This document shows, one piece after another, positions 10,855 through 63,538 of a stretch of 64,000 nt of DNA (position 1 is the first letter of the stretch; every line of letters starts with the position of its first letter). Made by a program: the position numbers and the translations under genes. Origin of the DNA: Gammaproteobacteria bacterium (GTDB lineage Bacteria > Pseudomonadota > Gammaproteobacteria > JAURND01); assembly GCA_035546635.1 (NCBI GenBank), contig DASZWJ010000019.1, positions 229,386 to 293,385 of the forward strand, in the 5' to 3' direction. Under the pieces are notes generated by a model that was not told where the DNA came from, made no database searches, and worked only from the letters and a program-made list of their open reading frames with translations.

Positions 10855-13362
10855 CTATTTTTTCTCATCAGAATCTTCAGGCCATTTAACTTTTACAGAA
10901 TCAGATTCTTGTGGCTTTGGTTCAGTCGGTTCGTGCTTTTCCTTTTCTGCAACCAAAGGCTCTTTAGCCGCTTGAGGCCGAATAATGACTGGCTCACTAC
11001 TTTGTTCCGCTGAAGTCACAGGCAGCGACGGCGATGTGGTTTCAGGCAATACTGGCACGGGTGGTTTTTCAACAGGAGCTTCAGTCGCAACTGGGGGTGC
11101 TGCGACGGGCTGGTCTGATTTTTGTGGTGGCTTTACCGGTGGCTGAGCTTGAGAGGATTTACCGCCTTTGAAGCGCTGGCTGTCACGATAATAGTCTTCA
11201 AGATCACTAGGGAAAGGTGGCAAATAATCAGGTAACTGCTCATCAGCCAACAATTTATGAGGGGTCGTTGTTGGCACTGCAGGCACATTTTCGGTAACAG
11301 GTGGGACGCCACTGGTTGTAACACTAGGTGTAGTATCTAGGTGAGTAGAGCCAGAAGTTGAACTAGATGCCGGTGATCCACTAGAGCGGCGGCGTCCGCC
11401 TCTTGTACCACGGCGGGAACGACCTTTAAATTCACCTTGGGGCGCTCCTGTTGGTGTTGTTGCTGTCGTTTCTTCTTTAGGTGTGGCAGGTATAGGCCTA
11501 GCTGTTTTTTTAGGTTCTCTACTACCAGCAGGTGGTCTATTCCCAGATGAAAATTTCTCATCACGCCTATGGGGTTTCCCTTGAGGAGGTCTAGCAGCTG
11601 GTCGTGGTTCTGGAGCAGAAGGAGTCGCAGGGATATTTGGTTTACCCACTTCTTCACCCTCTGCGCCAAATAAACTAGATATTAAACGCTTAATAATACC
11701 TGAAGGCGGTTTTTTGCTGGAAGGAGCAGGCTCTTCGGGTAAAATATGTTTTACTGCAGGTTTTTCCTCTATTTTGCCTGCCCCCGCTTGTGCTTGCGCT
11801 TTTTTCCCAGGATGTTGTTCTATTTCTGGTGTTTCCAGCAAATGGTAACTGGGTTTGAATTTACCGCTGCCAGAAGTTTCCTCTTCCGTCACGCGTTTAA
11901 TGCGGTATTTGGGTGACTCTAATTGCGGATTGGGAATAATGGTAATATTGATATTGCGTTGTCTTTCAATTGAAGTAAGGCTTTCGCGCTTTTCATTAAT
12001 AAGATAAGTGGCCACATCAATAGGCAGCTGTACTTGTAACTGTGCCGTATGGGGTTTCACTGCATCTTCTTCTATCATACGCAGTATAGACAGTCCCAAT
12101 GATTCTATGCCGCGGATAGTGCCCCAGCCGCTGCAGCGTGGGCATATCACTTGGGTTGCTTCACCGAGTGAATGGCGTAAACGTTGTCTTGACATCTCCA
12201 ATAAACCGAAACGCTGCGAAATGCTGCCGATCTGGGTGCGTGCTTTATCCAGTTTCAGTGCATTGCGCAAACAATTTTCCACTTCCCGTCGATGACGCAC
12301 TGAGGCCATATCGATAAAATCAATGACCACTAAACCGCCAATATCACGCAGCCGTAGCTGACATGCAATCTTTTCAGCTGCTTCCATATTGGTTCTAAGC
12401 GCAGTTTCTTCAATATCACCCCCTTTAGTGGAGCGTGCCGAATTGACATCAATTGCGACTAAAGCTTCAGTATGGTCGATGACAACAGAGCCACCCGATG
12501 GCAAACGGAGTTCACGTTGATGCGCTAATTCAATTTGATGCTCAATCTGATAGCGATTAAATAGAGGTACGTCGTGGGTATATAATTTAAGACAATGTAA
12601 GAAATCAGGACGAATTTGCTGTAGATAGTTTTTAATCTTTTCATGTAAGGTTGGATCATCAACGATGATGTCGAGTATATCCTGGCGCAGATAATCACGC
12701 ATCGTGCGGGGTACAATATCGCTTTCCTGATGAATCAAAAATGGTGGCGAACCTTCGGCGGCTGCTTTAGTAATCGCTTCCCATTGTTTCAGTAAGGTAT
12801 TGAGATCCCATTGCAGCTCAAGAGAAGTTTTACCAACTCCGGCAGTGCGGATAATGACACCCATGTCTTCAGGTAAGGGTAGGGCGCTTAATATTTCGCG
12901 TAACTCATCACGCTCCTCACCTTCTACCCGCCGGGAAATACCGCCCGCGCGTGGATTGTTGGGCATTAGTACTAAGTAGGAGCCGGCTAAGCTGATAAAA
13001 GTCGTTAAAGCAGCACCTTTATTGCCGCGCTCTTCTTTTTCTACTTGCACCATAATGGTGCTGCCTTCTTTGATAAGCTCCTTTATATTGAGCCGTTCGA
13101 GCTTTTTCGTATCAGTGGTGGTGAAATTTTCGCGGGCAATTTCTTTTAAGGGTAAAAAACCGTGGCGTTCGCTGCCAAAGTTGACAAATGCGGCGTCAAG
13201 ACTAGGCTCTACGCTACTAATCTTGCCAAGGTATATATTTCCGGTTTTGGTTTTGTAACTTTGACGCTCTACAATGAGGTCTATGAGGTTTTGAGTATCT
13301 ACATCTACGATAGCAACGCGCAATTCTTCTGATTGCGTTGCGTTAATCAGCATTCTTTTCAT
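10855..13362 (-). CDS. rne: ribonuclease E
   Basis: I trimmed the ORF to ATG 13362 (MKRMLINATQSEELRVAIVD). It has an S1 domain, DIGGLVVIDFIDM, the Zn-link CPRCSGWG, and a Pro/Arg/Ser-rich C-terminal scaffold. Confidence 0.93.
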   Translation of the reverse strand: MKRMLINATQSEELRVAIVDVDTQNLIDLIVERQSYKTKTGNIYLGKISSVEPSLDAAFVNFGSERHGFLPLKEIARENFTTTDTKKLERLNIKELIKEGSTIMVQVEKEERGNKGAALTTFISLAGSYLVLMPNNPRAGGISRRVEGEERDELREILSALPLPEDMGVIIRTAGVGKTSLELQWDLNTLLKQWEAITKAAAEGSPPFLIHQESDIVPRTMRDYLRQDILDIIVDDPTLHEKIKNYLQQIRPDFLHCLKLYTHDVPLFNRYQIEHQIELAHQRELRLPSGGSVVIDHTEALVAIDVNSARSTKGGDIEETALRTNMEAAEKIACQLRLRDIGGLVVIDFIDMASVRHRREVENCLRNALKLDKARTQIGSISQRFGLLEMSRQRLRHSLGEATQVICPRCSGWGTIRGIESLGLSILRMIEEDAVKPHTAQLQVQLPIDVATYLINEKRESLTSIERQRNINITIIPNPQLESPKYRIKRVTEEETSGSGKFKPSYHLLETPEIEQHPGKKAQAQAGAGKIEEKPAVKHILPEEPAPSSKKPPSGIIKRLISSLFGAEGEEVGKPNIPATPSAPEPRPAARPPQGKPHRRDEKFSSGNRPPAGSREPKKTARPIPATPKEETTATTPTGAPQGEFKGRSRRGTRGGRRRSSGSPASSSTSGSTHLDTTPSVTTSGVPPVTENVPAVPTTTPHKLLADEQLPDYLPPFPSDLEDYYRDSQRFKGGKSSQAQPPVKPPQKSDQPVAAPPVATEAPVEKPPVPVLPETTSPSLPVTSAEQSSEPVIIRPQAAKEPLVAEKEKHEPTEPKPQESDSVKVKWPEDSDEKK

Positions 13363-13688: not shown

Positions 13689-14651
13689 GTGTCAATACAT
13701 CCTATGACAGACATCACACCCAATGTTCACTGGTTAATTGTTGAAAGCCACTCTGAAGGCCAGCGTATCGATAATTTTTTGTTTTCTCGGCTAAAGGGAG
13801 TCCCTAAGAGTCGTATTTATCGGGCGCTGCGTAATGGTGAATTCCGTGCCAATAAAAAAAGAATTACTGCGGATTACCGCCTGCATGCAGGCGACTCTAT
13901 CCGTATACCACCCTTACGCGTCGCTACCCGTGAAACACCAGCCAAACCAGCGGCAAACTTGATTAAATTACTGGCAGAAGCAGTCATTTATGAAGATAAA
14001 GACATCATTATAGTGAATAAACCCTCCGGTATTGCTGCGCATGGCGGCAGTGGCATTCATTTTGGTGTCATTGAATTGTTGCGACACCTACACCCCAAGT
14101 TAAAATTTTTGGAATTGGTGCATCGCTTAGACCGTGACACCACCGGCTGTTTGATGTTGGCGAAAAAACCTTCTATATTGAAAGAGTTGCATCAATTATT
14201 GGCTCATGGTCAAGTTGAAAAAACCTATTTGGCGTTAGTTGCGCACCCTTTTAACGGTAAAGAGCGCAGAATTAAGGCGGCTTTACAGAAAAATTTATTG
14301 CGCTCGGGTGAGCGGGTGGTTACGGTGAATGCTGAAGGCAAGCCAGCTGAAACCATTATTACGCCTCTTGAGGTTTTCACACATACGTCCCTGATTGCAG
14401 CGAAGCCTCTGACTGGACGCACTCACCAGATTCGCGTACATGCTGCGCATATTGGTCATAGTATTTTAGGCGATGAGAAGTACGGTGATCGCAAAATGGA
14501 TAAGGCTTTGGGGGTTAAACATTTATTGTTGCATGCAGCAGCATTGAAATTTGTGATGCCTACCTCTGGTAAAGCAATTGCTGTGTGTGCTTGTTTGGAT
14601 CAGCATTTTCAGGAGGTTCTAAAAAAAATGCGCGGCTTCTTACAGCCTTGA
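13689..14651 (+). CDS. rluC: 23S rRNA pseudouridine synthase RluC
   Basis: It has an S4-like N-terminus (QRIDNFLFSRLKGVPKSRIYRAL) and the catalytic motif HRLDRDTTGCLMLAK. It is divergent from rne, as in E. coli. The start could be GTG 13689 or ATG 13704. Confidence 0.88.
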   Translation: MSIHPMTDITPNVHWLIVESHSEGQRIDNFLFSRLKGVPKSRIYRALRNGEFRANKKRITADYRLHAGDSIRIPPLRVATRETPAKPAANLIKLLAEAVIYEDKDIIIVNKPSGIAAHGGSGIHFGVIELLRHLHPKLKFLELVHRLDRDTTGCLMLAKKPSILKELHQLLAHGQVEKTYLALVAHPFNGKERRIKAALQKNLLRSGERVVTVNAEGKPAETIITPLEVFTHTSLIAAKPLTGRTHQIRVHAAHIGHSILGDEKYGDRKMDKALGVKHLLLHAAALKFVMPTSGKAIAVCACLDQHFQEVLKKMRGFLQP

Positions 14652-14688
14652 CTTTTTTCCTTCTCCCCTTGTGGGAGAAGGAAAAAAG
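14652..14688. repeat. family A-like perfect palindrome immediately after the rluC stop
   Basis: cttttttccttctcccc ttgt gggagaaggaaaaaag has the same loop/core as family A. The stem differs but remains complementary. Confidence 0.75.
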
Positions 14689-14814
14689 CTAGGGCTGTAA
14701 GAGGAAAAAGTTAAGGCTGTAAGAGGCTATAAGAGATTGATGCCTACCCTAAAACATGGTTTAATGCCCTCCCTCAGCCTGGCTTTTGCCAGCATAATAT
14801 TATTTTAATTTTAC

Positions 14815-16743
<1,929 letters not shown>

Positions 16744-26084: not shown

Positions 26085-26110
26085 AGGGGGTATGTGAATA
26101 CCCTATCATT

Positions 26111-26186
26111 AAGCAGGCACTTCCCTTCTCCCATCCCGCAAGGGGATTCCCTTCGGTCACAGACGGGAGAAGGGAAGTGCCTGCTT
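26111..26186 (+). repeat. family A' hairpin: 22-bp perfect stem enclosing the conserved 32-nt core
   Basis: The stem aagcaggcacttcccttctccc / gggagaagggaagtgcctgctt encloses atcccgcaaggggattcccttcggtcacagac. It lies 27 nt after the stop of the ArnT-like gene. Confidence 0.85.
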
Positions 26187-26320
26187 ATGGAATGATATGA
26201 TGAATACTTGACCCCTCAGCCCACCTAGACTTGAAAGTGCTCCTTATGCTAAACTCCCGTTTTTATATGATCTGCTTTTCTTTACCCAGTATGCGGCAAT
26301 TGCGGCGAGCTTAATCACTT

Positions 26321-28120
26321 ATGTCGATTCCCTTTTTTGCACTGTTTTCGTCTAATCCCTCAAGCCTACTCAACCTATACAAAAGACTATTAACTTCAGT
26401 CAAACCCTACCGCTTGATCTTTTTACTGGGCATTCTAGGTACGGCTGCATCTTCTGGCATTGACGCTGGTCTGGCTTGGTTGATTAAGCCCATCATTAAT
26501 CACGGCCTAGTGGATAAAAACTTCCATTTTATCCGCATACTGCCGTTTGTGGTTATCCTGATCTTCATTCTGCGTGGTTTTGCCGTATTTATGTCCACTT
26601 ATTACATCGCCAAGGTCGGTAAAAGTGTCGTTATGGACTTCCGCCAGCAAATGTTTGCCCATATGCTCAGGTTACCAGCCAGTTTTTATGATACCCAATC
26701 CTCGGGGCAATTGCTTTCTCGCTTAATCTTTAATGTAGAACAGGTCACGGAAGCGACCACCAATGCCTTGATGATTATGGTGCAAGATGGGGTATTAGCG
26801 ATAGGTCTCATTGTCGTCATGATTTCCTTAAGTTGGCAGATGACCTTGATGTTTATGGTGATTCTACCGATGTTGAGTATCATGATTCGCTATACCAGCA
26901 AAAGAATGCGTCGGCTGAGTTTTAGCGTGCAAAAAGCGATGGGGGAAATTAGCCATATTGCCGAAGAGAGCTTTGAAGGTTACCGCGTGATTCGTACCTT
27001 TGGCGGTGAGGATTATGAAAATAACAAATTTGTCAAAGCTACTAAAGATAATCGTAGACGTGAAATGAAGATTGTCGCCACTAATGCCATCGGCACGGCT
27101 ACCACCCAAATTATTGTCTCGTTTGCAATTGCGCTCATTTTATTTCTAGCTACTTTGCCTCAAGTAGACATTTCACCTGGCACCTTTGCGGCATTAATAG
27201 CCTCCATGTTCGCATTATTACGACCCATACGGCGCATCACGCAAATCAATAACTCCATACAAAAGGGTGTTGCCGGCGCACAAAGTATTTTTGAAATACT
27301 CGATATTGAACCCGAAAAAGATACAGGGACTTTGACCGTACAGCGGGTTAAAGGAGCGATTGAATACCGCGACTTGCGCTTTACTTATCCTCATACTAAA
27401 AAGCAGGTACTGTCAGAAATAAATTTTCATATTAAACCTGGGGAAACTGTGGCCCTGGTCGGCCGTTCTGGCAGCGGCAAAACAACTTTAGTGAGTCTAT
27501 TGCCGCGGTTTTATGAGTTAGAAAAAGGCAGTATTTTAATTGATGGTGTAGACATCCGTGAGTTTCGTCTAGCTGATTTACGCAACCAGTTTGCATTAGT
27601 ATCGCAGCATGTCACTTTATTTAATGACACGATAGCGCGCAATATTGGCTATGGGCGACTCAGCGAGGTCAGTGAAGAGGATATTATACGTGCCGCTGAA
27701 GCAGCCCATGCCATGGATTTTATCCGTGAATTTCCTCAAGGCTTAAATACCCTGATTGGTGAAAATGGCGTGCTGTTATCGGGTGGTCAGCGGCAACGTA
27801 TCGCCATTGCTAGAGCGTTATTAAAAAATTCACCTATTTTAATTCTCGATGAAGCAACCTCATCCTTGGATACAGAATCCGAGCGACGGATTCAAGCAGC
27901 ACTCGATGACCTCATGCGTCATCGCACCACACTGGTGATAGCGCATCGTTTGTCGACTATAGAAAAAGCTGATCGCATTTTAGTGGTGGAGAAAGGCCGG
28001 ATTGTTGAAACCGGCACGCACGCTGAATTAGTGCGCAACAATGGCCATTATGCCTATTTACATGCACTGCAGTTCAAAGACGAGCCTGCCACCAGTGATG
28101 CTGAAGTTGTGGTCATATGA
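26321..28120 (+). CDS. msbA: lipid A export ATP-binding/permease protein MsbA
   Basis: A six-TM domain is followed by an NBD with Walker A GRSGSGKTT, signature LSGGQRQRIAIARAL and Walker B ILILDEATS. Its stop overlaps the lpxK start (ATGA), the conserved msbA-lpxK pairing. Confidence 0.9.
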   Translation: MSIPFFALFSSNPSSLLNLYKRLLTSVKPYRLIFLLGILGTAASSGIDAGLAWLIKPIINHGLVDKNFHFIRILPFVVILIFILRGFAVFMSTYYIAKVGKSVVMDFRQQMFAHMLRLPASFYDTQSSGQLLSRLIFNVEQVTEATTNALMIMVQDGVLAIGLIVVMISLSWQMTLMFMVILPMLSIMIRYTSKRMRRLSFSVQKAMGEISHIAEESFEGYRVIRTFGGEDYENNKFVKATKDNRRREMKIVATNAIGTATTQIIVSFAIALILFLATLPQVDISPGTFAALIASMFALLRPIRRITQINNSIQKGVAGAQSIFEILDIEPEKDTGTLTVQRVKGAIEYRDLRFTYPHTKKQVLSEINFHIKPGETVALVGRSGSGKTTLVSLLPRFYELEKGSILIDGVDIREFRLADLRNQFALVSQHVTLFNDTIARNIGYGRLSEVSEEDIIRAAEAAHAMDFIREFPQGLNTLIGENGVLLSGGQRQRIAIARALLKNSPILILDEATSSLDTESERRIQAALDDLMRHRTTLVIAHRLSTIEKADRILVVEKGRIVETGTHAELVRNNGHYAYLHALQFKDEPATSDAEVVVI

Positions 28121-29100
28121 ATACCTGGGTGAAGGCCTGGTATGACCGTCACCCTTGGCTCTATGCATTAACACCATTTGCCGCTATTTACTGCAGTGCA
28201 GCACAAATCAAACGTTACAGTTATCGAATTGGCCTAAAAAAAACCACGCAATTTGCAGTGCCTGTGATTGTAATCGGCAATGTTACCGTAGGTGGAACCG
28301 GTAAAACCCCATTAGTGATTGCTTTAGCGAAAATCCTCCTTGAACACGGATATAAACCTGGGATAGTCAGTCGTGGTTACGGTGGTCAAGCCGCAACGAC
28401 ACCACAATGGGTAACAGGAAATAGCAACCCTCTGGAAACTGGGGATGAGCCATTATTAATCGCACGGCATACCCTTTGCCCTTTAGTCATTGCCAAACAA
28501 CGTGTCTCGGCAATCACTACTTTACTCAATCATTACCCTTGCGATGTCATACTCAGCGATGATGGTCTGCAGCATTATGCTATGGGAAGGAGCATAGAAA
28601 TTGCTGTCATAGATGGGGTGCGGCGTTTTGGTAATGGTCTTTGCCTGCCAGCCGGTCCGTTACGTGAGCCCTTATCGCGCCTAAAACAAGTGGATTTTAA
28701 GGTGACTCAAGGCAACCCAGAACTGGGTGAATGGGCGATGCAATTGCTGCCGGGAACCATTTATAATCTCGCAAATCCAGAACAAAAATTGCATCCTCAT
28801 GAACATCTACCTCCTGTACACGCCGTAGCCGGCATAGGCAATCCGCAACGCTTTTTTACTCAGCTTGAACAACTGGGATTTACTGTTATTGCGCATCCAT
28901 TTCCCGATCATTATCATTTCCAGCCAGGTGATATTGATTTTGGTAAAAATGCCATCACCATTATGACTGAAAAAGATGCGGTGAAATGTGAAAAATTTGC
29001 GGATGAGCGGCATTGGTGTTTGCCAGTGACTGCACAATGTGATGCGGGTTTTATTAATTTACTGTTGGAAAAATTAGGCTGTCATCCTGGGCGTAAGTGA
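28117..29100 (+). CDS. lpxK: tetraacyldisaccharide 4'-kinase LpxK
   Basis: It has the P-loop GNVTVGGTGKTP and SRGYGG. The last codons (CHPGRK-stop) lie inside a family B repeat. Confidence 0.9.
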   Translation: MNTWVKAWYDRHPWLYALTPFAAIYCSAAQIKRYSYRIGLKKTTQFAVPVIVIGNVTVGGTGKTPLVIALAKILLEHGYKPGIVSRGYGGQAATTPQWVTGNSNPLETGDEPLLIARHTLCPLVIAKQRVSAITTLLNHYPCDVILSDDGLQHYAMGRSIEIAVIDGVRRFGNGLCLPAGPLREPLSRLKQVDFKVTQGNPELGEWAMQLLPGTIYNLANPEQKLHPHEHLPPVHAVAGIGNPQRFFTQLEQLGFTVIAHPFPDHYHFQPGDIDFGKNAITIMTEKDAVKCEKFADERHWCLPVTAQCDAGFINLLLEKLGCHPGRK

Positions 29101-29112
29101 AGGATCTCCTGA
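29081..29112. repeat. family B left half-copy overlapping the lpxK 3' end
   Basis: gtcatcctgggcgtaagtgaaggatctcctga matches the left outer and inner arms of the full copies. No right half is present. Confidence 0.75.
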
Positions 29113-35433: not shown

Positions 35434-35585
35434 CCCAAGGGTCGTTGTTGAATAAATCGAATAAATTGAGTGTCAATCTATGTTGGGTGCCATCCGGCTG
35501 AGATTCCGCGACTTGATCGCGGGATCTCAGCCGGATGGCACTAAGCAGAGTAAACCCTTCTTATTTATTCAACAATCCCCAAGGG
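35434..35585. mobile_element. MITE-like element with 13-bp terminal inverted repeats and an 8-bp flanking direct duplication
   Basis: The direct repeat cccaaggg occurs at 35434-35441 and 35578-35585. The TIRs are ttgttgaataaat (35445-35457) and atttattcaacaa (35563-35575). The central 25-bp hairpin spans 35487-35541. No ORF is present. Confidence 0.7.
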
Positions 35586-37477: not shown

Positions 37478-37562
37478 TTCCAGCAGGAAGGCCGGATCCA
37501 GTCGCAGGAAAGCGAAACTTTAACTTCCCTGTCAACTGGATCCCGACTCCCTGCCGGGACGG
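37478..37562 (+). repeat. family C element, copy 1
   Basis: ttccagcaggaaggccggatccagtcgcaggaaagcgaaactttaacttccctgtcaactggatcccgactccctgccgggacgg aligns along its length with 63453-63538. It overlaps the cmk 3' end. Confidence 0.8.
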
Positions 37563-44602: not shown

Positions 44603-44619
44603 ATGAACGATGAAGCATT

Positions 44620-44701
44620 GTCATTCCCACCTAGGTGGGAATCTATCCTAATTTTGGCTAGATGCCAGAGAAGAATAGATTCCCGCCTACGCAGGAATGA
44701 C
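44620..44701. repeat. family F composite palindrome built from two ATTCCC-N8-(G/A)GGAAT units
   Basis: gtcattcccacctaggtgggaatctat ... atagattcccgcctacgcaggaatgac has outer and inner inverted repeats. It lies between msrA and hisG. Confidence 0.8.
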
Positions 44702-44740
44702 ATGTTTTTTATATACTTAAATTCACACTAGATAAAGCTG

Positions 44741-45637
44741 ATGAAATCCATTTCAAGATTAAGAATCGCCATACAAAAAAGTGGACGTCTCAATCACGAT
44801 TCGCTAGACCTTTTATATCGTTGTGGCCTTAAAATGCATACACGCGCAAATACCTTATTTTGTCATAGCGAAAATCTACCGATTGACATATTGTTTGTCC
44901 GAGATGATGACATTCCCACGTTGGTGATGGACGATATCTGCGACCTTGGCATTGTCGGTGAAAATGTCCTGTTTGAAAAAATACCGGCTTCAAGATGTGC
45001 CATCGACAATCCAAAGTTTACTATAGTGCAAAAATTAGGTTTTAGCCGCTGTCGTCTTTCCATTGCCTTGCCGGAAGAAATCCCATTTAGCCCTAAAACA
45101 CTGCAAGGACTGAAAATCGCTACCAGTTACCCCAATTTGCTGCAGCAATATCTCGATCAACACCAGATCAAGGCTGAGATCACAGTGATCTCAGGTTCCG
45201 TGGAAATTACACCTCGGTTGGGTATGGCCGATGCCATTTGTGATTTAGTTGCCACCGGTCAAACTTTAGAAGAACATAACTTAAAAGAGGTGGCAGAGAT
45301 TATTCAAAGTCAAGCTGTATTAATTAAAACGCAAAAAGACCTTAATCCACAAAAACTCGATACCTTTGAATTATTATTGCGCAGGATTAATGGTGTATTA
45401 AAAGCCCAGGAAAGCAAATATATTATGTTTCATGCGCCCTTAGCGCAGCTGGACAAAATTAAAAATATTCTGCCTGGCGCGGAAATGCCGACGATTATTC
45501 CTTTAGCCGGCACTACAGAAAAAGTGGCCGTACATGCCGTATCGACCGAAGGGGTGTTTTGGAGCACTTTGGAGAAGTTGCAAGAGGCAGGAGCCAGTTC
45601 AATTTTAGTATTACCCATTGAAAAAATGTTGAACTAG
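44741..45637 (+). CDS. hisG: ATP phosphoribosyltransferase (long form)
   Basis: This 298-aa protein is the first gene of the his cluster. It has LRIAIQKSGRL and the C-terminal regulatory domain. Confidence 0.92.
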   Translation: MKSISRLRIAIQKSGRLNHDSLDLLYRCGLKMHTRANTLFCHSENLPIDILFVRDDDIPTLVMDDICDLGIVGENVLFEKIPASRCAIDNPKFTIVQKLGFSRCRLSIALPEEIPFSPKTLQGLKIATSYPNLLQQYLDQHQIKAEITVISGSVEITPRLGMADAICDLVATGQTLEEHNLKEVAEIIQSQAVLIKTQKDLNPQKLDTFELLLRRINGVLKAQESKYIMFHAPLAQLDKIKNILPGAEMPTIIPLAGTTEKVAVHAVSTEGVFWSTLEKLQEAGASSILVLPIEKMLN

Positions 45638-45645
45638 GTGGCACA

Positions 45646-46956
45646 GTGCATATTCATTTTTGGAATCAGTTATCCGCAATAGAACAGCAAAATCTGCTGG
45701 AAAGACCTAAAGCCAGTCAACCTGACTCAATTCGGGAAAAAACCCAAGCAATTATCGATCAAGTAAGGGAAGAGGGCGATGCAGCGTTAATTGACCTCAC
45801 CGTCCTACACGACAAAGTAAAACTAACCCAATTAACCACTACTTTAGCGGAATTTTCAGCAGCAAAAAATCAAATCCGCAAAGAAGCGTTAGCCGCTATA
45901 GAGCGTGCACAACAGCAGATCACCACTTATCATCAAGCACAACAGCCTGAAATCCGCAAAATTGAAACTGCCCCAGGTATTTACTGTGAGCGTCAGCCAC
46001 GTGCCATTGACAGAGTAGGGCTTTATGTTCCAGGTGGCTCTGCCCCTTTGATTTCTACTTTGCTGATGCTGGCAATTCCAGCACAGTTAGCCGGTTGCTC
46101 ACTCAAAGTCCTCTGCACACCACCGAATAAAAATGGCACTATTGATCCACATTTGTTATATGCTGCAGAGCTGTGTGGTATTCAGCAAATTTTTAAAATC
46201 GGCGGAGCGCAAGCGGTCGCTGCGATGGCCTATGGCACTGAATCTGTACCGAAAGTTGATAAAATCTTTGGGCCAGGAAATGCTTTTGTCCTTGCTGCGA
46301 AAATGTTGGTTTCACAGGATGCCAAAGGTGCCAGTATTGATATGCCTGCTGGTCCATCAGAGCTCCTGGTGATTGCCGATGACAATGCCAATGCAGATTT
46401 TGTTGCTGCAGATTTGTTATCTCAAGCTGAACATGGGATTGATTCGCAAGTGATATTGCTGACCATGTCAGTAGATTTTGCTAACCAAGTTCATGGTGCG
46501 CTTAACCAGCAATTATCCCAGCTATCACGTCGCACAATTGCTGAGCAATCTTTAGCCCATGGCCGTATTATTGTCGTTACCTCTTTGGAACAAGCATTTT
46601 CTATTAGCAATCGTTATGCCCCTGAGCATTTAAGCTTACAAATAACCCACCCAGAGAACTTTCTCACAGAGATTCATAATGCAGGAGCCGTATTTTTAGG
46701 TGACTGGTCAGCTGAAACTATGGGAGACTATATCACCGGTTCTAACCATGTTTTGCCTACTTCAGGTTTTGCGCGCGCCTATAGTGGGTTATCTTTAGTG
46801 GATTTTATGAAGTTTATTAGTTTTCAAAAAGTCAGCCGCCCTGGGTTGCAAGCCCTTGGGCCATTTGCCGAACAATTGGCCGAGCTGGAAGGATTGGATG
46901 CTCACAGAAATGCGGTGTCTATTCGTTTGGGAGTTGACTTTCATCCTGAGCATTAG
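45646..46956 (+). CDS. hisD: histidinol dehydrogenase
   Basis: It has LLSQAEHG and GDYITGSNHVLPT. The start is GTG. The last codons (FHPEH-stop) lie inside family B repeat copy a. Confidence 0.93.
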   Translation: MHIHFWNQLSAIEQQNLLERPKASQPDSIREKTQAIIDQVREEGDAALIDLTVLHDKVKLTQLTTTLAEFSAAKNQIRKEALAAIERAQQQITTYHQAQQPEIRKIETAPGIYCERQPRAIDRVGLYVPGGSAPLISTLLMLAIPAQLAGCSLKVLCTPPNKNGTIDPHLLYAAELCGIQQIFKIGGAQAVAAMAYGTESVPKVDKIFGPGNAFVLAAKMLVSQDAKGASIDMPAGPSELLVIADDNANADFVAADLLSQAEHGIDSQVILLTMSVDFANQVHGALNQQLSQLSRRTIAEQSLAHGRIIVVTSLEQAFSISNRYAPEHLSLQITHPENFLTEIHNAGAVFLGDWSAETMGDYITGSNHVLPTSGFARAYSGLSLVDFMKFISFQKVSRPGLQALGPFAEQLAELEGLDAHRNAVSIRLGVDFHPEH

Positions 46957-47033
46957 TGAAGGATCTCCTTATGGTGGCACTAGCCACATGAAGTACCACC
47001 ATAAGGAGATCCTTCGTTTACGCTCAGGATGAC
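46940..47033. repeat. family B full-length palindromic element, copy a (hisD/hisC junction)
   Basis: The outer 11-bp stem is tcatcctgagc / gctcaggatga. The inner, perfect 20-bp stem is gaaggatctccttatggtgg / ccaccataaggagatccttc. The element contains the hisD stop codon (46954-46956). Confidence 0.9.
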
Positions 47034-47097
47034 AAAAAAATACAGCAACAGCCATATTAACAATTTAATACTTAAGAGCATCTTGAGTACACATATT

Positions 47098-48156
47098 ATG
47101 CCCAACCTAGCACATTTAATCAGACCTGACCTGCGCGAATTCACTGCCTACAGCTCGGCTCGTGATGAAGCTAAAAAGGGAGAGATTTGGCTCAACGCCA
47201 ACGAATCACCTTGGGAAAATGAGCATTTTGCCGAACAAAAAATTAACCGTTATCCTGAAAAACAACCACAAAAATTGATTAATGCGCTAGCTGAAATTTA
47301 CGGTGTTAAAAATAATCAGCTATCTGTATTGCGCGGTAGCGATGAAGCTATTGATCTATTGATGCGCTTATTTTGTGAAGCGGGAAAAGATGCCATTATC
47401 ACTTGTCCTCCGACTTTCGGCATGTATGCTGTCTATGCCAAATTACAAGGTGCAAAAATAATCGATATTCCTTTAGTGCCTGAAGCAGGTTTTCAATTGG
47501 ATATGAAAAATCTAGTAAACCAACAACACCTCGAAGTTAAATTGATTTTTCTATGTTCTCCAAATAACCCAACAGGTAATTTATTGTGCGAGGCAGATAT
47601 ACTACAATTATGCGAGCATTATGCCGGAAAAGCCGTGATTGTAGTTGATGAAGCTTACATAGAATTTTCCTCGGCAAACAGCCTGTCTCACTATATAGAC
47701 CAGTATGAAAATTTAGTGATCCTACGTACCTTGTCCAAGGCTTACGGATTGGCCGGTGCACGCTGTGGTTTATTATTAGGTCACAGCTTTATTATCAACT
47801 GGATAAAAGCGATTATGGCGCCTTATCCATTGCCGGCATTTACGATTCATGCCGTGACGCAAACACTCATGAAATTACAACGCCTTAAGCAACAGATTGA
47901 GACCATTAAAACGGAGCGCGAGCGTTTGGCTACTGAATTACAGCGACTGCCATTTGTTAAAAAAATCTGGCCAAGCGCGGCAAATTTTTTGTTGCTAGAA
48001 ACAGAAAATTCACAAAAAATTATGCAAGCGTGTATAGATTCCGGTATTGTACTACGCGATATGCACGGGAAATTATTTTTGCAAAACTGTATCCGAATTA
48101 CGGTTGGTACGCCTTTAGAAAATGCTCGCTTAATTGAATTTTTACAAACGTTATAA
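47098..48156 (+). CDS. hisC: histidinol-phosphate aminotransferase
   Basis: I trimmed ORF 47029.. to ATG 47098, because the upstream codons lie inside a repeat. The PLP-Lys context is LSKAYGLAGARCG. Confidence 0.9.
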   Translation: MPNLAHLIRPDLREFTAYSSARDEAKKGEIWLNANESPWENEHFAEQKINRYPEKQPQKLINALAEIYGVKNNQLSVLRGSDEAIDLLMRLFCEAGKDAIITCPPTFGMYAVYAKLQGAKIIDIPLVPEAGFQLDMKNLVNQQHLEVKLIFLCSPNNPTGNLLCEADILQLCEHYAGKAVIVVDEAYIEFSSANSLSHYIDQYENLVILRTLSKAYGLAGARCGLLLGHSFIINWIKAIMAPYPLPAFTIHAVTQTLMKLQRLKQQIETIKTERERLATELQRLPFVKKIWPSAANFLLLETENSQKIMQACIDSGIVLRDMHGKLFLQNCIRITVGTPLENARLIEFLQTL

Positions 48157-49242
48157 ATGAGTTTCTCAAACATGCCACAAGAAAAACTGCTTTTTATCGA
48201 CCGTGACGGGACTTTAATCGAGGAACCAGAAGATCAGCAGATCGATAGCATAGAAAAATTACATTTCCTGCCAGATGTCATTTCTAGTCTATTAAAATTA
48301 AAAACTGCCGGTTACAAATTTATTATGGTCAGCAATCAAGATGGCTTAGGAACTGATAGCTTGCCGCACGGAGATTTTCAGCCACCCCATGAATTAATGC
48401 TGCGTATTCTATCCTCTCAAGGCATTCATTTTGATGCCATACATATCTGCCCACATAAGCCGGACGCCAACTGTGACTGTCGCAAACCCAAAATCGGTTT
48501 ATTAGCGAATTATCTAATCGAACAAAAGATCAACCGTGAGCATTCTTATGTCATCGGTGATCGGCAGACTGATCTAGAATTAGCGCAAAATTTGGGAATA
48601 AAAGGCATCCGCATTCGCACCCCAACCACTCCAGGCTGGGCTGAAGTCGCTCACCAGATTCTATCTCAACCGCGGCAGGTGCAACTCATACGCAAAACTA
48701 AAGAAACTGCAATAGAAGTACAAATTGATCTTGATAAACCTAGTCCCATTCATATCCACACCGGTATCGGTTTTTTCGATCATATGCTGGAACAGTTAGC
48801 TAAACATGGTGGCTTCAGTCTAAAAATAACTGTTGCAGGGGATTTACATATTGACGACCATCATACCGTAGAAGATACGGCCATTACGCTGGGTGAAGCC
48901 ATGCGTGAAGCTTTAGGAGATAAAATAGGTATTGGGCGCTATGGTTTTTTATTGCCTATGGACGAAGCCTTAGCCAGGGTAGCCATTGATTTAAGTGGGC
49001 GCGCGCATTTAACTTTTAAAGCAGCATTTAACCGCGAGCGCGTGGGGGATTTATCCACGGAATTGGTAGAACATTTTTTCCGTTCTTTTGCCGAAGGATT
49101 AAAAGCGACATTGAATATTAAAGTAACAGGGGACAACACCCACCATATGATCGAATCAGTTTTTAAAGGCGTAGGGCGCGCCTTACGCCAGGCTATTGCT
49201 AAAACCGGGGATGATCTACCTAGCACTAAGGGTTTACTATGA
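48157..49242 (+). CDS. hisB: bifunctional histidinol-phosphatase / imidazoleglycerol-phosphate dehydratase
   Basis: It has the N-terminal HAD motif FIDRDGTL and the C-terminal IGPD motif DDHHTVEDTAI. Confidence 0.93.
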   Translation: MSFSNMPQEKLLFIDRDGTLIEEPEDQQIDSIEKLHFLPDVISSLLKLKTAGYKFIMVSNQDGLGTDSLPHGDFQPPHELMLRILSSQGIHFDAIHICPHKPDANCDCRKPKIGLLANYLIEQKINREHSYVIGDRQTDLELAQNLGIKGIRIRTPTTPGWAEVAHQILSQPRQVQLIRKTKETAIEVQIDLDKPSPIHIHTGIGFFDHMLEQLAKHGGFSLKITVAGDLHIDDHHTVEDTAITLGEAMREALGDKIGIGRYGFLLPMDEALARVAIDLSGRAHLTFKAAFNRERVGDLSTELVEHFFRSFAEGLKATLNIKVTGDNTHHMIESVFKGVGRALRQAIAKTGDDLPSTKGLL

Positions 49243-49850
49243 TTGCGATTATTGATGCCTGTGGGGCTAATTTCGCTTCGGTGGAATTTGCACTTAAACG
49301 CTTGGGGCGAGCAGTGACGCTCACGCGAGATAAAGACATCATTCGCTCAGCATCACATGTAATTCTACCTGGCGTAGGCACTGCCAGCCAGGCTATGCAG
49401 CAATTGGAAAATTTACAATTAATTTCAGTGATTCAGCAATTAACGCAACCGGTATTAGGTATCTGTCTTGGCATGCAGATTTTACATGCCCATTCTGCTG
49501 AAGGCGATGTGGATTGTCTAGGCCTTTTGCCAGGGGATATTAAGCCATTGCCAGAAGATCAGGGTTTACCTATTCCACATATGGGTTGGAATCAGCTATG
49601 CATCTCCCATGCGACCAGTTCTTTACTGCAGGATATCCCGAATAATAGCTACGTCTATTACGTGCATAGCTATGCAGCGCCAGTGACTGAGCATACCCTG
49701 GCTACCACCCAATACGGTGCAATATTTACGGCAGCAGTACATTATAAAAATTTTTATGGGGTACAATTTCATCCTGAGCGTTCGGGAGCGGTTGGCGCTA
49801 AGATATTACAGAATTTTCTTGTCCTGAGCGAAAGCGAAGGATCTCCATAA
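49239..49850 (+). CDS. hisH: imidazole glycerol phosphate synthase, glutaminase subunit
   Basis: It has GICLGMQ (nucleophile Cys) and FHPERS. The C-terminal tail (VLSESEGSP-stop) is encoded by family B repeat copy b. Confidence 0.92.
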   Translation: MIAIIDACGANFASVEFALKRLGRAVTLTRDKDIIRSASHVILPGVGTASQAMQQLENLQLISVIQQLTQPVLGICLGMQILHAHSAEGDVDCLGLLPGDIKPLPEDQGLPIPHMGWNQLCISHATSSLLQDIPNNSYVYYVHSYAAPVTEHTLATTQYGAIFTAAVHYKNFYGVQFHPERSGAVGAKILQNFLVLSESEGSP

Positions 49851-49911
49851 TGTGGCGCCTCATCATAAAAGTGCCATCATACGGAGATCCTTCGCTATCG
49901 CTCAGGATGAC
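49819..49911. repeat. family B full-length palindromic element, copy b (hisH/hisA junction)
   Basis: The outer 10-bp stem is tcctgagcga / tcgctcagga. The inner 13-bp stem is gcgaaggatctcc / ggagatccttcgc. The element contains the hisH stop codon (49848-49850). Confidence 0.9.
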
Positions 49912-49932
49912 AGTCAAGGGAAATAAACCTCA

Positions 49933-50676
49933 ATGAAACTATACCCAGCAATCGATTTAAAATCAGGAACCTGTGTCCGCCTTTACAAAGGCTCTTTTGA
50001 CCATGTCACTGCTTATCAAGCATCCCCCTTATCTGTCGCTGAAAATTTTGCCAGTGAAGGCGCAGATTTTCTTCACATCATTGATCTAGATGGCGCTCAA
50101 GAAGGCACCTCCAAACATACATCGTTAGTCTTAGATATTATTGAGAAAACTAGATTGAGCATACAATTAGGTGGCGGCATTCGCAGCTATGCACAATTAT
50201 CCCAATGGTTACACAATGGCGTCACTCGCGTTATTTTAGGTAGCATCGCTCTGTCCGAACCCGAGAAAGTGAACATGTGGCTGCGTGAATTTGGCGCTGA
50301 ACGCATTGTATTAGCGCTAGATATTAGAATGAATAGCGCCAATGAACCCATATTGGCATCACACGGTTGGCAACAAAATAGCGGCATGAGTTTATGGCAT
50401 TTACTTGACCTATATCAGGACAGCCCATTAAAACATGTACTTTGCACGGATATTGATTGCGATGGCACGTTGGCCGGGCCCAATATTTCCCTCTATCAAC
50501 AATGTAGCCAACGCTACCCAAACCTTGATTTTCAAGCCTCAGGTGGGGTCAGCTCCTTAGCCGATCTACGCACATTAGCACAAATGCAAGTTTCCGGTGT
50601 CATTGTCGGCAAAGCACTTTACGAGCGGAAATTTTCTTTAAGTGAAGCATTAATTGAGCTCAGCCATGTTAGCTAA
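49933..50676 (+). CDS. hisA: 1-(5-phosphoribosyl)-5-[(5-phosphoribosylamino)methylideneamino]imidazole-4-carboxamide isomerase
   Basis: It begins [15 protein letters not shown] and has the (beta/alpha)8 pattern GGGIRS ... GGVSS. Confidence 0.92.
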
Positions 50677-51433
50677 ACGTATTATTCCGTGCCTTGATGT
50701 AAAAAATGGCAAAGTTGTTAAAGGTATCCAGTTTCGTAATCATCAAATCATGGGTGATATTGTGGAATTGGCACAATATTATTGTCAGTCTGGCGCCGAT
50801 GAATTGGTGTTCTATGATATTACTGCCAGTGCCGATCAACGTGCTGTTGGGCGTGACTGGATTCGTGAGATTGCCCAACATTTAGATATTCCTTTTTGTG
50901 TTGCCGGCGGTATCCGCAGTCTTGAAGAAGCTGAAGCGGTACTAAATGCCGGTGCGGATAAAATCTCTGTTAATAGTCCGGCATTGGAAAACCCTGATTT
51001 GATAAACCAATTAGTCAAGGTATTTGGGCAGCAATGTATTGTGATTGGCATCGACAGTCTAAAAATCGACGACCGCTATAAAGTCTGCCAATACACCGGT
51101 AGTGAGTCTAAAACGCTGACCACAGTGCGTTATACGGAAGATTGGATCTGTGAGGTGCAAGAGCGCGGTGCCGGCGAAATCGTGCTGAACTGCATGAATC
51201 AAGATGGTATGCGTCAAGGTTATGATATAGAACAATTAACCCAGATGCGTGCTATTACTAAAACTCCCTTAATCGCATCCGGCGGGGCAGGCAATATGCA
51301 GCATTTTTTAAGCGTATTTCAAGAAGCACAGGTTGATGGCGCATTGGCGGCCAGTGTCTTTCACACCAAAGCCATAGCAATTCCTGAGTTAAAACAGTTT
51401 CTTTTAAACCATCATGTTGAGATCAGGCTATGA
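50666..51433 (+). CDS. hisF: imidazole glycerol phosphate synthase, cyclase subunit
   Basis: It begins [20 protein letters not shown] and has VAGGIRS and ASGGAG. I prefer ATG 50666 over 50654. Confidence 0.93.
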
Positions 51434-52032
51434 TAAATTTTGCCCCAGATGATTTGGCTTGGGATAAAATGCAAGGTTTACTGCCAGCTATTGTGCAAGA
51501 TGTGCATTCAGGTTCAGTACTGATGTTAGGTTATATGAACCGTGCGGCTTTACAACGTACTTTGGATACAAAATGGGTGACATTTTTCAGTCGCTCTAAA
51601 AATGCCTTGTGGCTAAAAGGTGAAACCTCGGGCAACAAGTTGCAATTAGTCAGCATAACCACCGATTGCGATCAAGATACATTGCTGATACTGGCTAACC
51701 CCACTGGGCCAGTTTGTCATACTGGATCATTAAGCTGTTTTGGCGAACAGCAAACAGATTGGGAATTTCTTAAACAGCTAGAAGCAACTATTGCTGCGCG
51801 TCAGCAGCAACGCCCAGAAAACAGTTATACCGCTCAATTATTTGCCGCAGGTATAAAAAGAATGGCACAGAAAGTCGGGGAGGAGGGCGTAGAAGTGGCT
51901 ATTGCTGCATTGGCTGAAGAGGATAGCAAGTTCTGCGAAGAAGGCGCTGATTTATTATTCCATCTATTGGTTTTATTACGTGCGAGAAATTTAAATTTGG
52001 CTGCCGTTATTGCTGCTCTGCGGACTAGATAA
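51430..52032 (+). CDS. hisIE: bifunctional phosphoribosyl-AMP cyclohydrolase / phosphoribosyl-ATP pyrophosphatase
   Basis: 200 aa with a cyclohydrolase half (GLLPAIVQD..., CHTG) and a MazG-like half ([10 protein letters not shown]). The start overlaps the hisF stop. Confidence 0.9.
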
Positions 52033-54265: not shown

Positions 54266-55201
54266 ATGAATATATTTATACCTGCTGCGGGATTTGGTTC
54301 GCGCTTATCCCCCATTACCTCCCGTATACCTAAACCTTTACTGCCTATTGTTGGCAAACCCTTGCTAGGATTATCGCTGGAAAAACTCAACCGCCTTAAA
54401 CCTAATCAAATAGGTATAAATCTTCACTATCTGCGCGAAGCCTTAACCCAATGGGTTGCGCATTCGCCGTTGCGCAATAAAATACAGCTATTTCCAGAAG
54501 AAACGATTTTAGGTTCTGGTGGCGCACTGAACAATGCCTATTCTTTATTGTGCCAAGATCACTTTCTGGTTTATAACAGTGATGTGCTATGTGATCTAGA
54601 TTTAGAATGGTTAATGCAACAACATTTGAATTCTGAAAACCTAGTCACACTCACCACCTGTCAGCACCCTAAATTTCCTCATGTTAAAGCGAATGTTGCT
54701 ATTAATTCTGAAGGTTTTTTTCAAGGCGTTGACAAAAAGCTTATTCCTTACGCTAAAGTAGCACAATACGTGGCTTATACCAGTATCGCGATGTATTCCC
54801 CTGAGTTTTTACAATTTTTACCTGCAGGAAAATCCAGTGTGCTAGATGCCTGGTTGACAGTAGCCGCCAAAGGTTATCGCATCGGCACCGTAGATATCAG
54901 CGCTTATGACTGGAATGATATAGGCACTCCTGCCGCCTATTTCTCAGCTGCTATGACTAATTTAAAAAGTACTGGTAAATCGGTTTATATCCATCCTTCT
55001 GCCAATGTCAATCGCACTGCGGTCATAGAAGGAGAGGTGATTATTGAAAGATATGCGGTAGTCGAGTCGGGGGTCAGTATTAAAAACTGCTTACTGCTAC
55101 CTGGTGCTGAGTTAATAAAAAACCGGCGCTATGAAAATAGTATCATAGGGCCCGGTTATGAGCTGCCAATGCTGTCATCCTTCGCTTGCGCTCAGGACTA
55201 A
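54266..55201 (+). CDS. sugar-1-phosphate nucleotidyltransferase with a C-terminal left-handed beta-helix
   Basis: It has the N-terminal NTP-transferase signature IPAAGFGSRLSPITSRIPKPLLPIVGKPLL and hexapeptide-like repeats near the C-terminus. It starts 14 bp after namZ. The last codons (FACAQD-stop) lie in a family B half-repeat. Confidence 0.75.
   Translation: MNIFIPAAGFGSRLSPITSRIPKPLLPIVGKPLLGLSLEKLNRLKPNQIGINLHYLREALTQWVAHSPLRNKIQLFPEETILGSGGALNNAYSLLCQDHFLVYNSDVLCDLDLEWLMQQHLNSENLVTLTTCQHPKFPHVKANVAINSEGFFQGVDKKLIPYAKVAQYVAYTSIAMYSPEFLQFLPAGKSSVLDAWLTVAAKGYRIGTVDISAYDWNDIGTPAAYFSAAMTNLKSTGKSVYIHPSANVNRTAVIEGEVIIERYAVVESGVSIKNCLLLPGAELIKNRRYENSIIGPGYELPMLSSFACAQD
55176..55199. repeat. 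family B right half-copy at the convergent gene ends
   Basis: atccttcgcttgcgctcaggact matches the right arm atccttcgctatcgctcaggatgac of copy b. Confidence 0.6.
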
Positions 55202-63452: not shown

Positions 63453-63538
63453 TCTCCCGGCAGGAGGCCGGGATCCAGGTCGCAGGAAAGCGAAACTGTG
63501 ATGTCCCTATCAACTGGATTTCGGCTTCCTGCCGGGAC
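63453..63538 (+). repeat. family C element, copy 2
   Basis: tctcccggcaggaggccgggatccaggtcgcaggaaagcgaaactgtgatgtccctatcaactggatttcggcttcctgccgggac has the same orientation and architecture as 37478-37562. Confidence 0.8.

Follow-up and report, generated by a model that had tools for sequence, protein, structure and literature searches.

A GTC-tagged hairpin repeat dimer overlaps the 3' end of hisD in a gammaproteobacterial his operon

RESULTS

An inverted hairpin dimer ends hisD and carries a false start for hisC

A palindromic element lies between hisD and hisC in a 64,000-nt stretch of DNA from a gammaproteobacterium of the GTDB lineage JAURND01 (GenBank assembly GCA_035546635.1, contig DASZWJ010000019.1, positions 229,386 to 293,385 of the forward strand). 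This stretch is referred to below as the window, and coordinates are window positions unless a relative is named. The element is 96 nt long (46939-47034) and takes up most of the hisD-hisC gap. It is composed of two hairpin modules in inverted orientation, tags outward, on either side of a spacer with complementary ends. The left module, TtTCATCCTGAGCaTTAGtGAAGGATC (46939-46965, plus strand), is degenerate and carries TTC in its tag in place of GTC; the right module, TGTCATCCTGAGCGTAAACGAAGGATC (47008-47034, minus strand), is close to consensus. The spacer (46966-47007) begins and ends with the complementary segments TCTCCTTATGGTGGCAC and GTACCACCATAAGGAGA, which lengthen the long hairpin, and contains a motif, TCTCC..GTGGCRC..GGAGA, common to other dimers of the family. 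The termini read TtTCAT...ATGACA, and the bounds were set by a family alignment with other dimers (TGTCAT...ATGACA). A first-pass annotation of the same DNA had described a nested palindrome of 94 bp at 46940-47033; its two stems, 11 bp on the outside (TCATCCTGAGC/GCTCAGGATGA) and a perfect 20 bp on the inside (GAAGGATCTCCTTATGGTGG/CCACCATAAGGAGATCCTTC), can be read off the sequence as claimed, but the extent has to be revised to 46939-47034.

A repeat search placed the palindrome arms at 46941-46981 and 46992-47032, 41 nt each, 88% complementary, and separated by 10 nt. Folded as RNA, the element gave -60.1 kcal/mol, compared with -23.3 +/- 3.5 kcal/mol for dinucleotide shuffles (z = -10.4); none of 200 shuffles was as good. 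The element follows GTTGAC on the left (before TTTCAT) and is followed by AAAAAAT on the right (after ATGACA).

The hisD gene (45646-46956, plus strand; 436 amino acids [aa]) runs into the left arm. Its profile match, TIGR00069, stops at R427, and the translation of the hisD frame continues to SIRLGVDFHPEH (in a longer stretch, AVSIRLGVDFHPEH), followed by two stop codons. Codons F432 to H436 (FHPEH), the TAG stop at 46954-46956, and an in-frame TGA at 46957-46959 all lie within the left module, at 46939-46959 on the plus strand. The segment attagtgaagg had been thought to carry stops in two frames; the TAG and TGA are instead consecutive codons of a single frame, that of hisD. At the other end, an ATG in the right terminus (ggATGaca, 47029-47031, plus strand) opens an over-long hisC open reading frame (ORF) of 375 aa. 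In a comparison with four relatives, the conserved HisC N terminus, M..L..LIR.DL..F..YSSARDEA, begins only at 47098, which agrees with the earlier view that this ATG is spurious. We therefore take hisC to run from its probable true start, MPNLAHLIRPDL, at 47098 to 48156 on the plus strand; the annotated start is probably 69 nt too early.

The two large gaps of the his operon hold copies of one repeat family

Profile matches identified a complete his operon, in which hisD and hisC are accompanied by hisG (44741-45637), hisB (48157-49242), hisH (49239-49850), hisA (49933-50676), hisF (50654-51433), and hisIE (51430-52032). Most of its junctions are compact: hisG and hisD are 8 nt apart, hisC and hisB abut, and the pairs hisB/hisH, hisA/hisF, and hisF/hisIE overlap. 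Only two large gaps are present, of 141 nt between hisD and the true hisC start and of 82 nt between hisH and hisA, and both carry the same repeat family, the two copies being 78% alike over 104 nt. The gene identities, the junctions, and the coincidence of the only two gaps with two repeat insertions are thus as first claimed.

The copy between hisH and hisA is a second dimer (49820-49912), with TTTCT before TGTCC on its left and GTCAAG after ATGACA on its right. It supplies the hisH tail, VLSESEGSP, together with the TAA stop at 49848-49850. The HisH proteins of relatives stop 2 to 4 residues past the motif ..IL.NF., and the HisH of the window reads on into the second copy, ending in NFLVLSESEGSP.

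A comparison of HisD C termini, set beforehand, gave a similar picture. The best 120 HisD homologues are conserved through ...AH.NAVS.RL and then have unrelated tails of 0 to 15 residues, and none of these 120 ends in FHPEH. The HisD of the closest relative (designated L001; 75% HisD identity) ends in IRLAAIDQVLNK. This result and the translation agree with the earlier proposal that FHPEH and the TAG are encoded by the element, and do not uphold a chance resemblance between a native tail and the repeat; to judge from these alignments, the HisD tail is not native. In two more distant relatives (L204 and L205), hisD and hisC overlap by 8 nt, and in L203 they lie 60 nt apart. Given the overlaps in L204 and L205, the 141-nt gap appears secondary, and a compact, translationally coupled hisD-hisC junction is the likely ancestral state.

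A 27-nt hairpin module with covarying pairs recurs across bacterial phyla

The arms of the element were turned into a search pattern, TCCTGAGCG-N3-6-GAAGGATC, which specifies 17 bases, and a genome collection of 596 Gb was searched with it. Exact copies of the module were found at 120 or more loci, in more than 15 phyla and more than 100 genomes; with 17 specified bases in 596 Gb, chance alone could give possibly a few hundred matches. Conservation, however, extends outside the pattern: among the 141 matches listed, GTCA precedes it in 133, position -5 is a T in 105, and the base directly after it is a T in 112, with nothing conserved beyond those flanks. Because these flanks were no part of the search, we conclude that the unit is a module of about 27 nt, tGTCATCCTGAGCG-N-AGCGAAGGATCt. 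An inverted partner lies within 400 nt of 68 of the 127 modules found elsewhere, at distances of 10 to 350 nt.

Partner modules were found by fuzzy matching in which pairing was not enforced, and 30 of them were used for covariation. Five of the seven pairs were changed on both sides. ATCCT..AGGAT is replaced by ATTCT..AGAAT, ATGCT..AGCAT, ATTCC..GGAAT, or GTCCT..AGGAC, and GAGC..GC by GAAC..GT. Paired cells made up 97.6% of the total, compared with 87% in shuffles, and none of 500 shuffles matched the observed paired fraction or the covariation score; when the partner columns were slid by 1 to 3 positions, only 19 to 53% were paired. The stem has nine positions, consisting of A-T, T-A, three variable pairs, a tandem G.A/A.G, G-C, and C-G, closed by a GNA loop of 3 nt, which is 4 nt in the window copies. 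The first two pairs are A-T in 28 and T-A in 26 of the 30 partners. Outside the stem are an unpaired (T)GTC tag on the 5' side and a C on the 3' side. G4, C6, the two G.A positions, the loop A, and C28 after the stem are invariant in the 30 partners, and T5 is present in at least 90%. TGTC begins the right module at hisD-hisC, the right module at hisH-hisA, and a solo module described below, and the left module at hisD-hisC begins with TTTC. The covariation indicates that each module is a selected hairpin.

Modules elsewhere also supply gene ends. The TGA of the module ends an ORF of at least 100 codons in 9 of the 127 cases, and in 8 more the frame reads through to a stop within 150 nt; both counts are upper bounds, since G+C-rich genomes contain long spurious frames. 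For this family, it is routine to supply a gene with its C terminus and stop codon.

Overlap with the upstream gene is the rule for copies in the window

We built a covariance model, R1, exclusively from modules of other phyla and scanned the window with filters off. R1 recognised the window modules at E values from 1e-7 to 0.03. At hisD-hisC it matched the left module at 46937-46968 on the plus strand (21.1 bits, E = 0.0035) and the right module at 47005-47036 on the minus strand (32.5 bits, E = 4e-6); at hisH-hisA it matched the left module at 49818-49846 (plus strand, 17.7 bits) and the right module at 49883-49914 (minus strand, 38.7 bits).

Two partial copies were recovered in addition. 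A solo module at 29080-29106 on the plus strand (R1 match 29078-29109, 24.1 bits) gives the sequence CHPGRK and a TGA (29098-29100) to an ORF of 327 aa at 28117-29100, and the next ORF starts 22 nt farther on. A collapsed dimer remnant at 55173-55198, TGTCATCC joined to TTCGCTTGCGCTCAGGAC (R1 match 55178-55197, minus strand, 15.9 bits), is read across by the ORF at 54266-55201, which ends in MLSSFACAQD; its form suggests that sequence was deleted between ATCC repeats across the hairpin. The orthologue of this ORF in L001 (19080-20350 of that sequence) ends in KLSS at the built-in TGA of a module, and the dimer there is still complete, its spacer containing a second, nested palindrome. Since the L001 orthologue ends at a full dimer, the insertion predates the split between the two lineages.

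The window thus holds two dimers, one solo module, and one remnant of the family, with one dimer of a sister family. Further copies occur in the nearest relative, and the module is found across bacterial phyla, as expected of the dispersed repeat that the first-pass annotation had proposed and at odds with a sequence peculiar to one locus. In all four gene-adjacent copies in the window the repeat overlaps the 3' end of the upstream ORF; the overlap is therefore the rule for the family here and not special to hisD. R1 gave the four gene-overlapping modules 15.9 to 24.1 bits versus 32.5 to 38.7 bits for the two non-overlapping ones. This is an observation on six modules, and the lower scores may reflect decay or selection.

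The sister-family dimer, TGTCATTCCC..GGGAATC, lies at 44619-44702 between msrA and hisG and resembles the NTS/dRS3 repeat of Neisseria. It consists of TGTCATTCCCACCTAGGTGGGAATC and an inverted partner and is close to the published NTS/dRS3 consensus (PMC11893778); R1 matched its halves at about 15 bits (44617-44704). With the his family, this makes at least two GTC-tagged repeat families in the source genome.

One match was discarded. The outer-arm motif also occurs at 49769-49779, in native hisH coding sequence (QFHPERS), and is not a copy of the repeat. The codons of the HisH amidotransferase motif FHPER (TTTCATCCTGAGCGT, 49767-49781) equal the repeat terminus at 13 of 14 nt, and the hisD tail region and the native QFHPERS region of hisH are alike at 23 of 30 nt. 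Relatives encode the motif with other codons (CCA GAA), and we therefore take the likeness to be a coding coincidence.

The window contains at least three further palindromic repeat families, an unusual wealth of such elements for one genome. Palindromes of the CCCTCTCCC...GGGAGAGGG type were seen at 687-726, 5300-5352, 7880-8054, 14638-14702, and 26110-26187, a hairpin with 34-nt arms at 35478-35550, and a 60-nt repeat pair at 37501-37560 and 63455-63538. At 14810-14916, the plus strand matches the thiamine pyrophosphate (TPP) riboswitch (Rfam RF00059, 74.2 bits).

Relatives carry other repeat families at the same junctions

In L001, a different palindrome family, long and perfect (GTGCCACTAGAAGCTGCCCCC...CCCGCAAGCGGGGG...), occupies both hisD-hisC (11340-11435 of that sequence) and hisH-hisA (14255-14410), and the hisG-hisD gap holds a copy of the present family beside a palindrome of the CCCCTCTCCC/GGGAGAGGG type (9790-9935). 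Other GTC-tagged dimers are found at his junctions of L204 and L205. The hisH-hisA junction of L204 holds an NTS-like one (8259-8410). L205 has, at 10270-10361 and 8390-8560 of its sequence, dimers of the GTCATTGCGAG type at two junctions, hisH-hisA and hisC-hisB; its HisH is 230 aa long, with about 33 extra residues translated from the hisH-hisA dimer. The dimer of the window, then, overlaps and terminates hisD and carries a false hisC start, and the relatives lack a copy of the family at that junction. Other repeat families at the his junctions of relatives, together with family copies at unrelated loci, show that the element is not his specific. The recurrent occupation of these junctions by differing families could mean that they are permissive sites or that insertion is targeted; both fit.

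The module is associated with small GIY-YIG genes in other genomes

In a Chloroflexota sequence, two inverted modules bracket an ORF of 96 aa with a Pfam GIY-YIG match (E = 5e-15). In Hymenobacter glaciei and in an alphaproteobacterium, a dimer lies just upstream of the start of a similar GIY-YIG gene; the former has a further module directly downstream of the GIY-YIG stop, and the spacer of the latter resembles that of the hisH-hisA copy in the window. Such a gene was near only 3 of 120 module loci, and when the ORFs near these loci were clustered, the largest family recurred at six of them at most, those few not having been scanned against Pfam. The association became clear from the gene side. 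In 80 metagenome loci with related GIY-YIG genes, all from one clade of single-domain genes encoding 93 to 96 aa, R1 found 297 matches in 187 kb. A strict structural module lay within 150 nt of 48 of the 82 genes (59%) and on both sides of 21 of the 82, mostly with tags outward. The module is strongly associated with small GIY-YIG genes in other genomes.

The element shares features with CGTC-tagged REPs and with Ssn-related motifs

Two known systems are close to the element. One is the group of CGTC-tagged repetitive extragenic palindromic sequences (REPs) described by Di Nocera, De Gregorio, and Rocco in 2013 (PMC3733652). As reported there, these have an unpaired tag that is often TGTC, stems of 8 to 9 bp beginning with A-T and T-A, loops of 4 to 5 nt, and a short unpaired tail starting with C. 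They occur mostly as inverted dimers with spacers of 20 to 100 nt whose ends are sometimes complementary, and between genes of the same orientation they lie near the 3' end of the first, sometimes supplying stops or being read as protein. The authors reported them from five phyla, without a dedicated transposase or associated enzyme, and name Neisseria dRS3 and the Rickettsia palindromic elements (RPEs) RPE-4 and RPE-6 as members of the superfamily. The element agrees with them in its tag, the A-T/T-A start of the stem, the 3' C, inverted dimers, complementary spacer ends, siting at ORF ends, and the supply of stops. Unlike CGTC-1 to CGTC-4, which are fully paired with loops of 4 to 5 nt, its stem has two conserved G.A mismatches and a GNA-type loop of 3 to 4 nt, though the two are set apart by the text description only. 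The motif of the module is absent from the supplements of the same paper, and literal sequence searches of the literature gave nothing relevant. At Rfam gathering thresholds, the window matched only the TPP riboswitch, and with permissive scoring the element matched generic miRNA-type hairpins far below threshold.

The other system is Ssn. SsnA, a single-domain GIY-YIG protein of 94 aa, binds the NTS hairpin CGTCATTCCCGCGMAVGCGGGAATCYRG only as single-stranded DNA (ssDNA) and cuts a few nucleotides upstream; cutting depends on the GTC triplet before the palindrome, and binding on the C that follows the palindrome (Chenal et al. 2025, PMC11893778). Thousands of Ssn homologues are flanked by Ssn-related motifs (SRMs) in an arrangement like that of an insertion sequence (IS), and in Neisseria the system modulates natural transformation (PMC11893778). 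The present module likewise has GTC upstream of the palindrome and C after it, occurs in many copies that are rarely intragenic, and flanks a GIY-YIG gene of about 94 aa on one or both sides; the transformation role published for Neisseria, by contrast, is not transferable by assumption.

Parallels with REPs, bacterial interspersed mosaic elements (BIMEs), and Rickettsia RPEs had been drawn before, and they are close: RPE-4 and RPE-6 are members of the CGTC/TGTC-tagged REP superfamily, into which the element fits. Rickettsia RPEs are inserted in frame within coding sequence and translated; here only the last five codons of hisD and the last nine of hisH are element derived, and in L205 about 33 aa of HisH are read from a related dimer. 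The Coxiella burnetii repeat QMITE2 (Wachter et al. 2018, PMC5896051) is also a gammaproteobacterial palindromic repeat that overlaps the 3' ends of functional genes, by 1 to 10 bp; it differs in being 150 to 190 bp long, in containing a GTAG REP, in its direct repeats of 7 to 11 nt, and in being a target of IS1111 (PMC5896051). Given the differences in size, tag, and direct repeats, identity with QMITE1 or QMITE2 was rejected, and both are regarded as analogues.

DISCUSSION

The first-pass annotation is borne out in its main claims, with corrections to the extent of the palindrome and to the frame of its stops; it missed the 27-nt module that flanks GIY-YIG genes and the generality, among copies in the window, of overlap with the upstream ORF. 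In our judgement, the hisD-hisC element is probably a non-coding, non-autonomous dimer of GTC-tagged hairpin repeats, of the class that flanks small GIY-YIG genes, and a tolerated selfish insertion over the 3' end of hisD. By its tag and dimeric arrangement, it is placed with the CGTC/TGTC-tagged REPs and resembles SRMs. The modules would be, or would once have been, bound as ssDNA hairpins by a predicted Ssn-type nuclease encoded elsewhere in the genome, and the dimer would have spread through nicking of ssDNA followed by repair or recombination. By analogy with SsnA, the left module, with TTC for GTC, may be bound yet not cut. The insertion would persist because the HisD tail past ...RL appears to be unconstrained. 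In the his mRNA the hairpin would act at most as a barrier to 3' exonucleases, and translational coupling between hisD and hisC would be broken.

Several results weigh against this explanation. Nearest-neighbour folding of a single module as DNA is weak (-2.7 kcal/mol, z = -0.6), no better than that of shuffles, so the case for a hairpin rests on covariation. The published SRM expression, HGTCWYN(0-2)YYVSBRHN(0-5)WNVSBRGN(0-2)RNCYNB, matches neither the module consensus nor the modules of the window, a failure attributable to the G.A interruptions in the stem; its sole match in the window, at 44786-44813, is unrelated (mean in shuffles, 0.12). The associated GIY-YIG proteins match Pfam PF01541 only; an assignment to cd10448 was not made, no NCBIfam match at the family level was obtained for them, and no solved Ssn structure was found in the PDB. 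There is no GIY-YIG gene in the 64-kb window, in 29 kb of L001, or in the sequence designated L070. Neither his copy has a target-site duplication, and no allele with an empty site was found; HisD identity to even the closest relative is no more than 75%, and the insertion is thus deduced by comparison and not observed. We know of no way, in the literature or otherwise, for a hydrolytic GIY-YIG nuclease to copy a repeat.

Two of the rival explanations would assign the element to another kind of mobile DNA. In architecture it equals a REPIN, the dimer of REP hairpins conceived by Bertels and Rainey in 2011 (PMC3116915): two inverted short hairpins with a spacer of 20 to 100 nt form a long hairpin, and the pair is one replicating, non-autonomous unit whose enzyme is encoded elsewhere. 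A classical REPIN, as in Pseudomonas and the Enterobacteria, is mobilised by a REP-associated tyrosine transposase (RAYT), a Y1 HUH enzyme that cuts and rejoins; the tag, however, is GTAG (GT[AG]G) in that system and TGTC here, and the enzyme near the modules is a hydrolytic GIY-YIG nuclease, no other family recurring at more than six of the 120 clustered loci, where those few were not scanned against Pfam. The CGTC report also records that no RAYT flanked by CGTC-type units was found (PMC3733652). Descent from a RAYT-driven REPIN is accordingly improbable, and we hold it still less probable that the element is a classical miniature inverted-repeat transposable element (MITE), a deletion derivative of an IS with a DDE transposase. 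A short, palindromic, multicopy, intergenic sequence with terminal inverted repeats (TGTCAT...ATGACA) would suit a MITE, which should also have left a target-site duplication, and direct repeats are absent at both his copies. Furthermore, what is conserved is a base-paired, covarying module that goes beyond a terminal repeat and commonly occurs alone, and the sole gene found between modules encodes a GIY-YIG nuclease of 96 aa.

The other rivals would give the element a function in the his operon. It could be a selected cis-acting RNA element, perhaps a co-opted repeat, that stabilises the mRNA, marks a site for its processing, or sets the ratio of hisGD to hisC-IE by decoupling. REPs within E. 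coli operons shield upstream mRNA from 3' exonucleases, and the element, like a REP or BIME there, is a stem-loop between cistrons of one mRNA and could stop 3'-5' exonucleases, although sequence family and enzyme differ. It lies inside a co-directional operon and is very probably transcribed, its RNA hairpin is very stable, and some palindrome is present at hisH-hisA in four related genomes. The sequence at the hisD-hisC junction is nevertheless unconserved, with another family in L001 and no gap at all in L204 and L205; the repeat also occurs at unrelated loci, and Rfam offers only the generic hairpins noted above. We consider such a selected role unlikely, if less so than either mobile-element alternative. 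Least credible of all, finally, is that the element serves as an intrinsic terminator or attenuator ahead of hisC. Its strong, G+C-containing stem-loop, lying between genes, is what such a site requires, but the stem is followed by CAAAAAAATACAG, with no T-run, a terminator scan of both strands predicted none at the element, and the genes downstream, hisC through hisIE, show no evident promoter above chance. The sequence ATGACA-18-CATATT (47029-47058) scores 9 of 12 as a sigma-70-like promoter; this is chance level, with 18 such sites seen and 17.2 expected.

The hairpin-repeat explanation that we prefer leaves room for a more specific proposal on how the dimers spread. Differing dimers, GTC-tagged or otherwise palindromic, occupy the hisD-hisC and hisH-hisA junctions in four related genomes, and each of the four gene-adjacent copies in the window lies right on the stop of the ORF before it. 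Instead of landing at random, the dimers might be drawn to the ends of ORFs or to hairpins already in place, repeat replacing repeat, by Ssn-type GIY-YIG nicking of ssDNA and copying during repair. We regard this as a speculative idea and rather unlikely, though somewhat less so than any of the rivals above. If true, it would be the first concrete model of SRM spread and would extend the Ssn system to the G.A/GNA variant across many phyla.

The insertion itself is real but ordinary for such repeats, and its overlap with a gene end is normal for the family. For annotation, it means that the last five residues of HisD and its stop, the last nine residues of HisH, and two further ORF ends in the window are derived from a repeat. 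It also ties this repeat to a class for which the partner enzyme, the Ssn ssDNA nuclease, has been known only since 2025, and the widespread G.A/GNA variant of the module escapes the published SRM pattern, so that censuses based on the pattern probably undercount. For the organism, the element would be a case of a selfish hairpin repeat that remodels gene ends and breaks translational coupling in an essential biosynthetic operon without harm.

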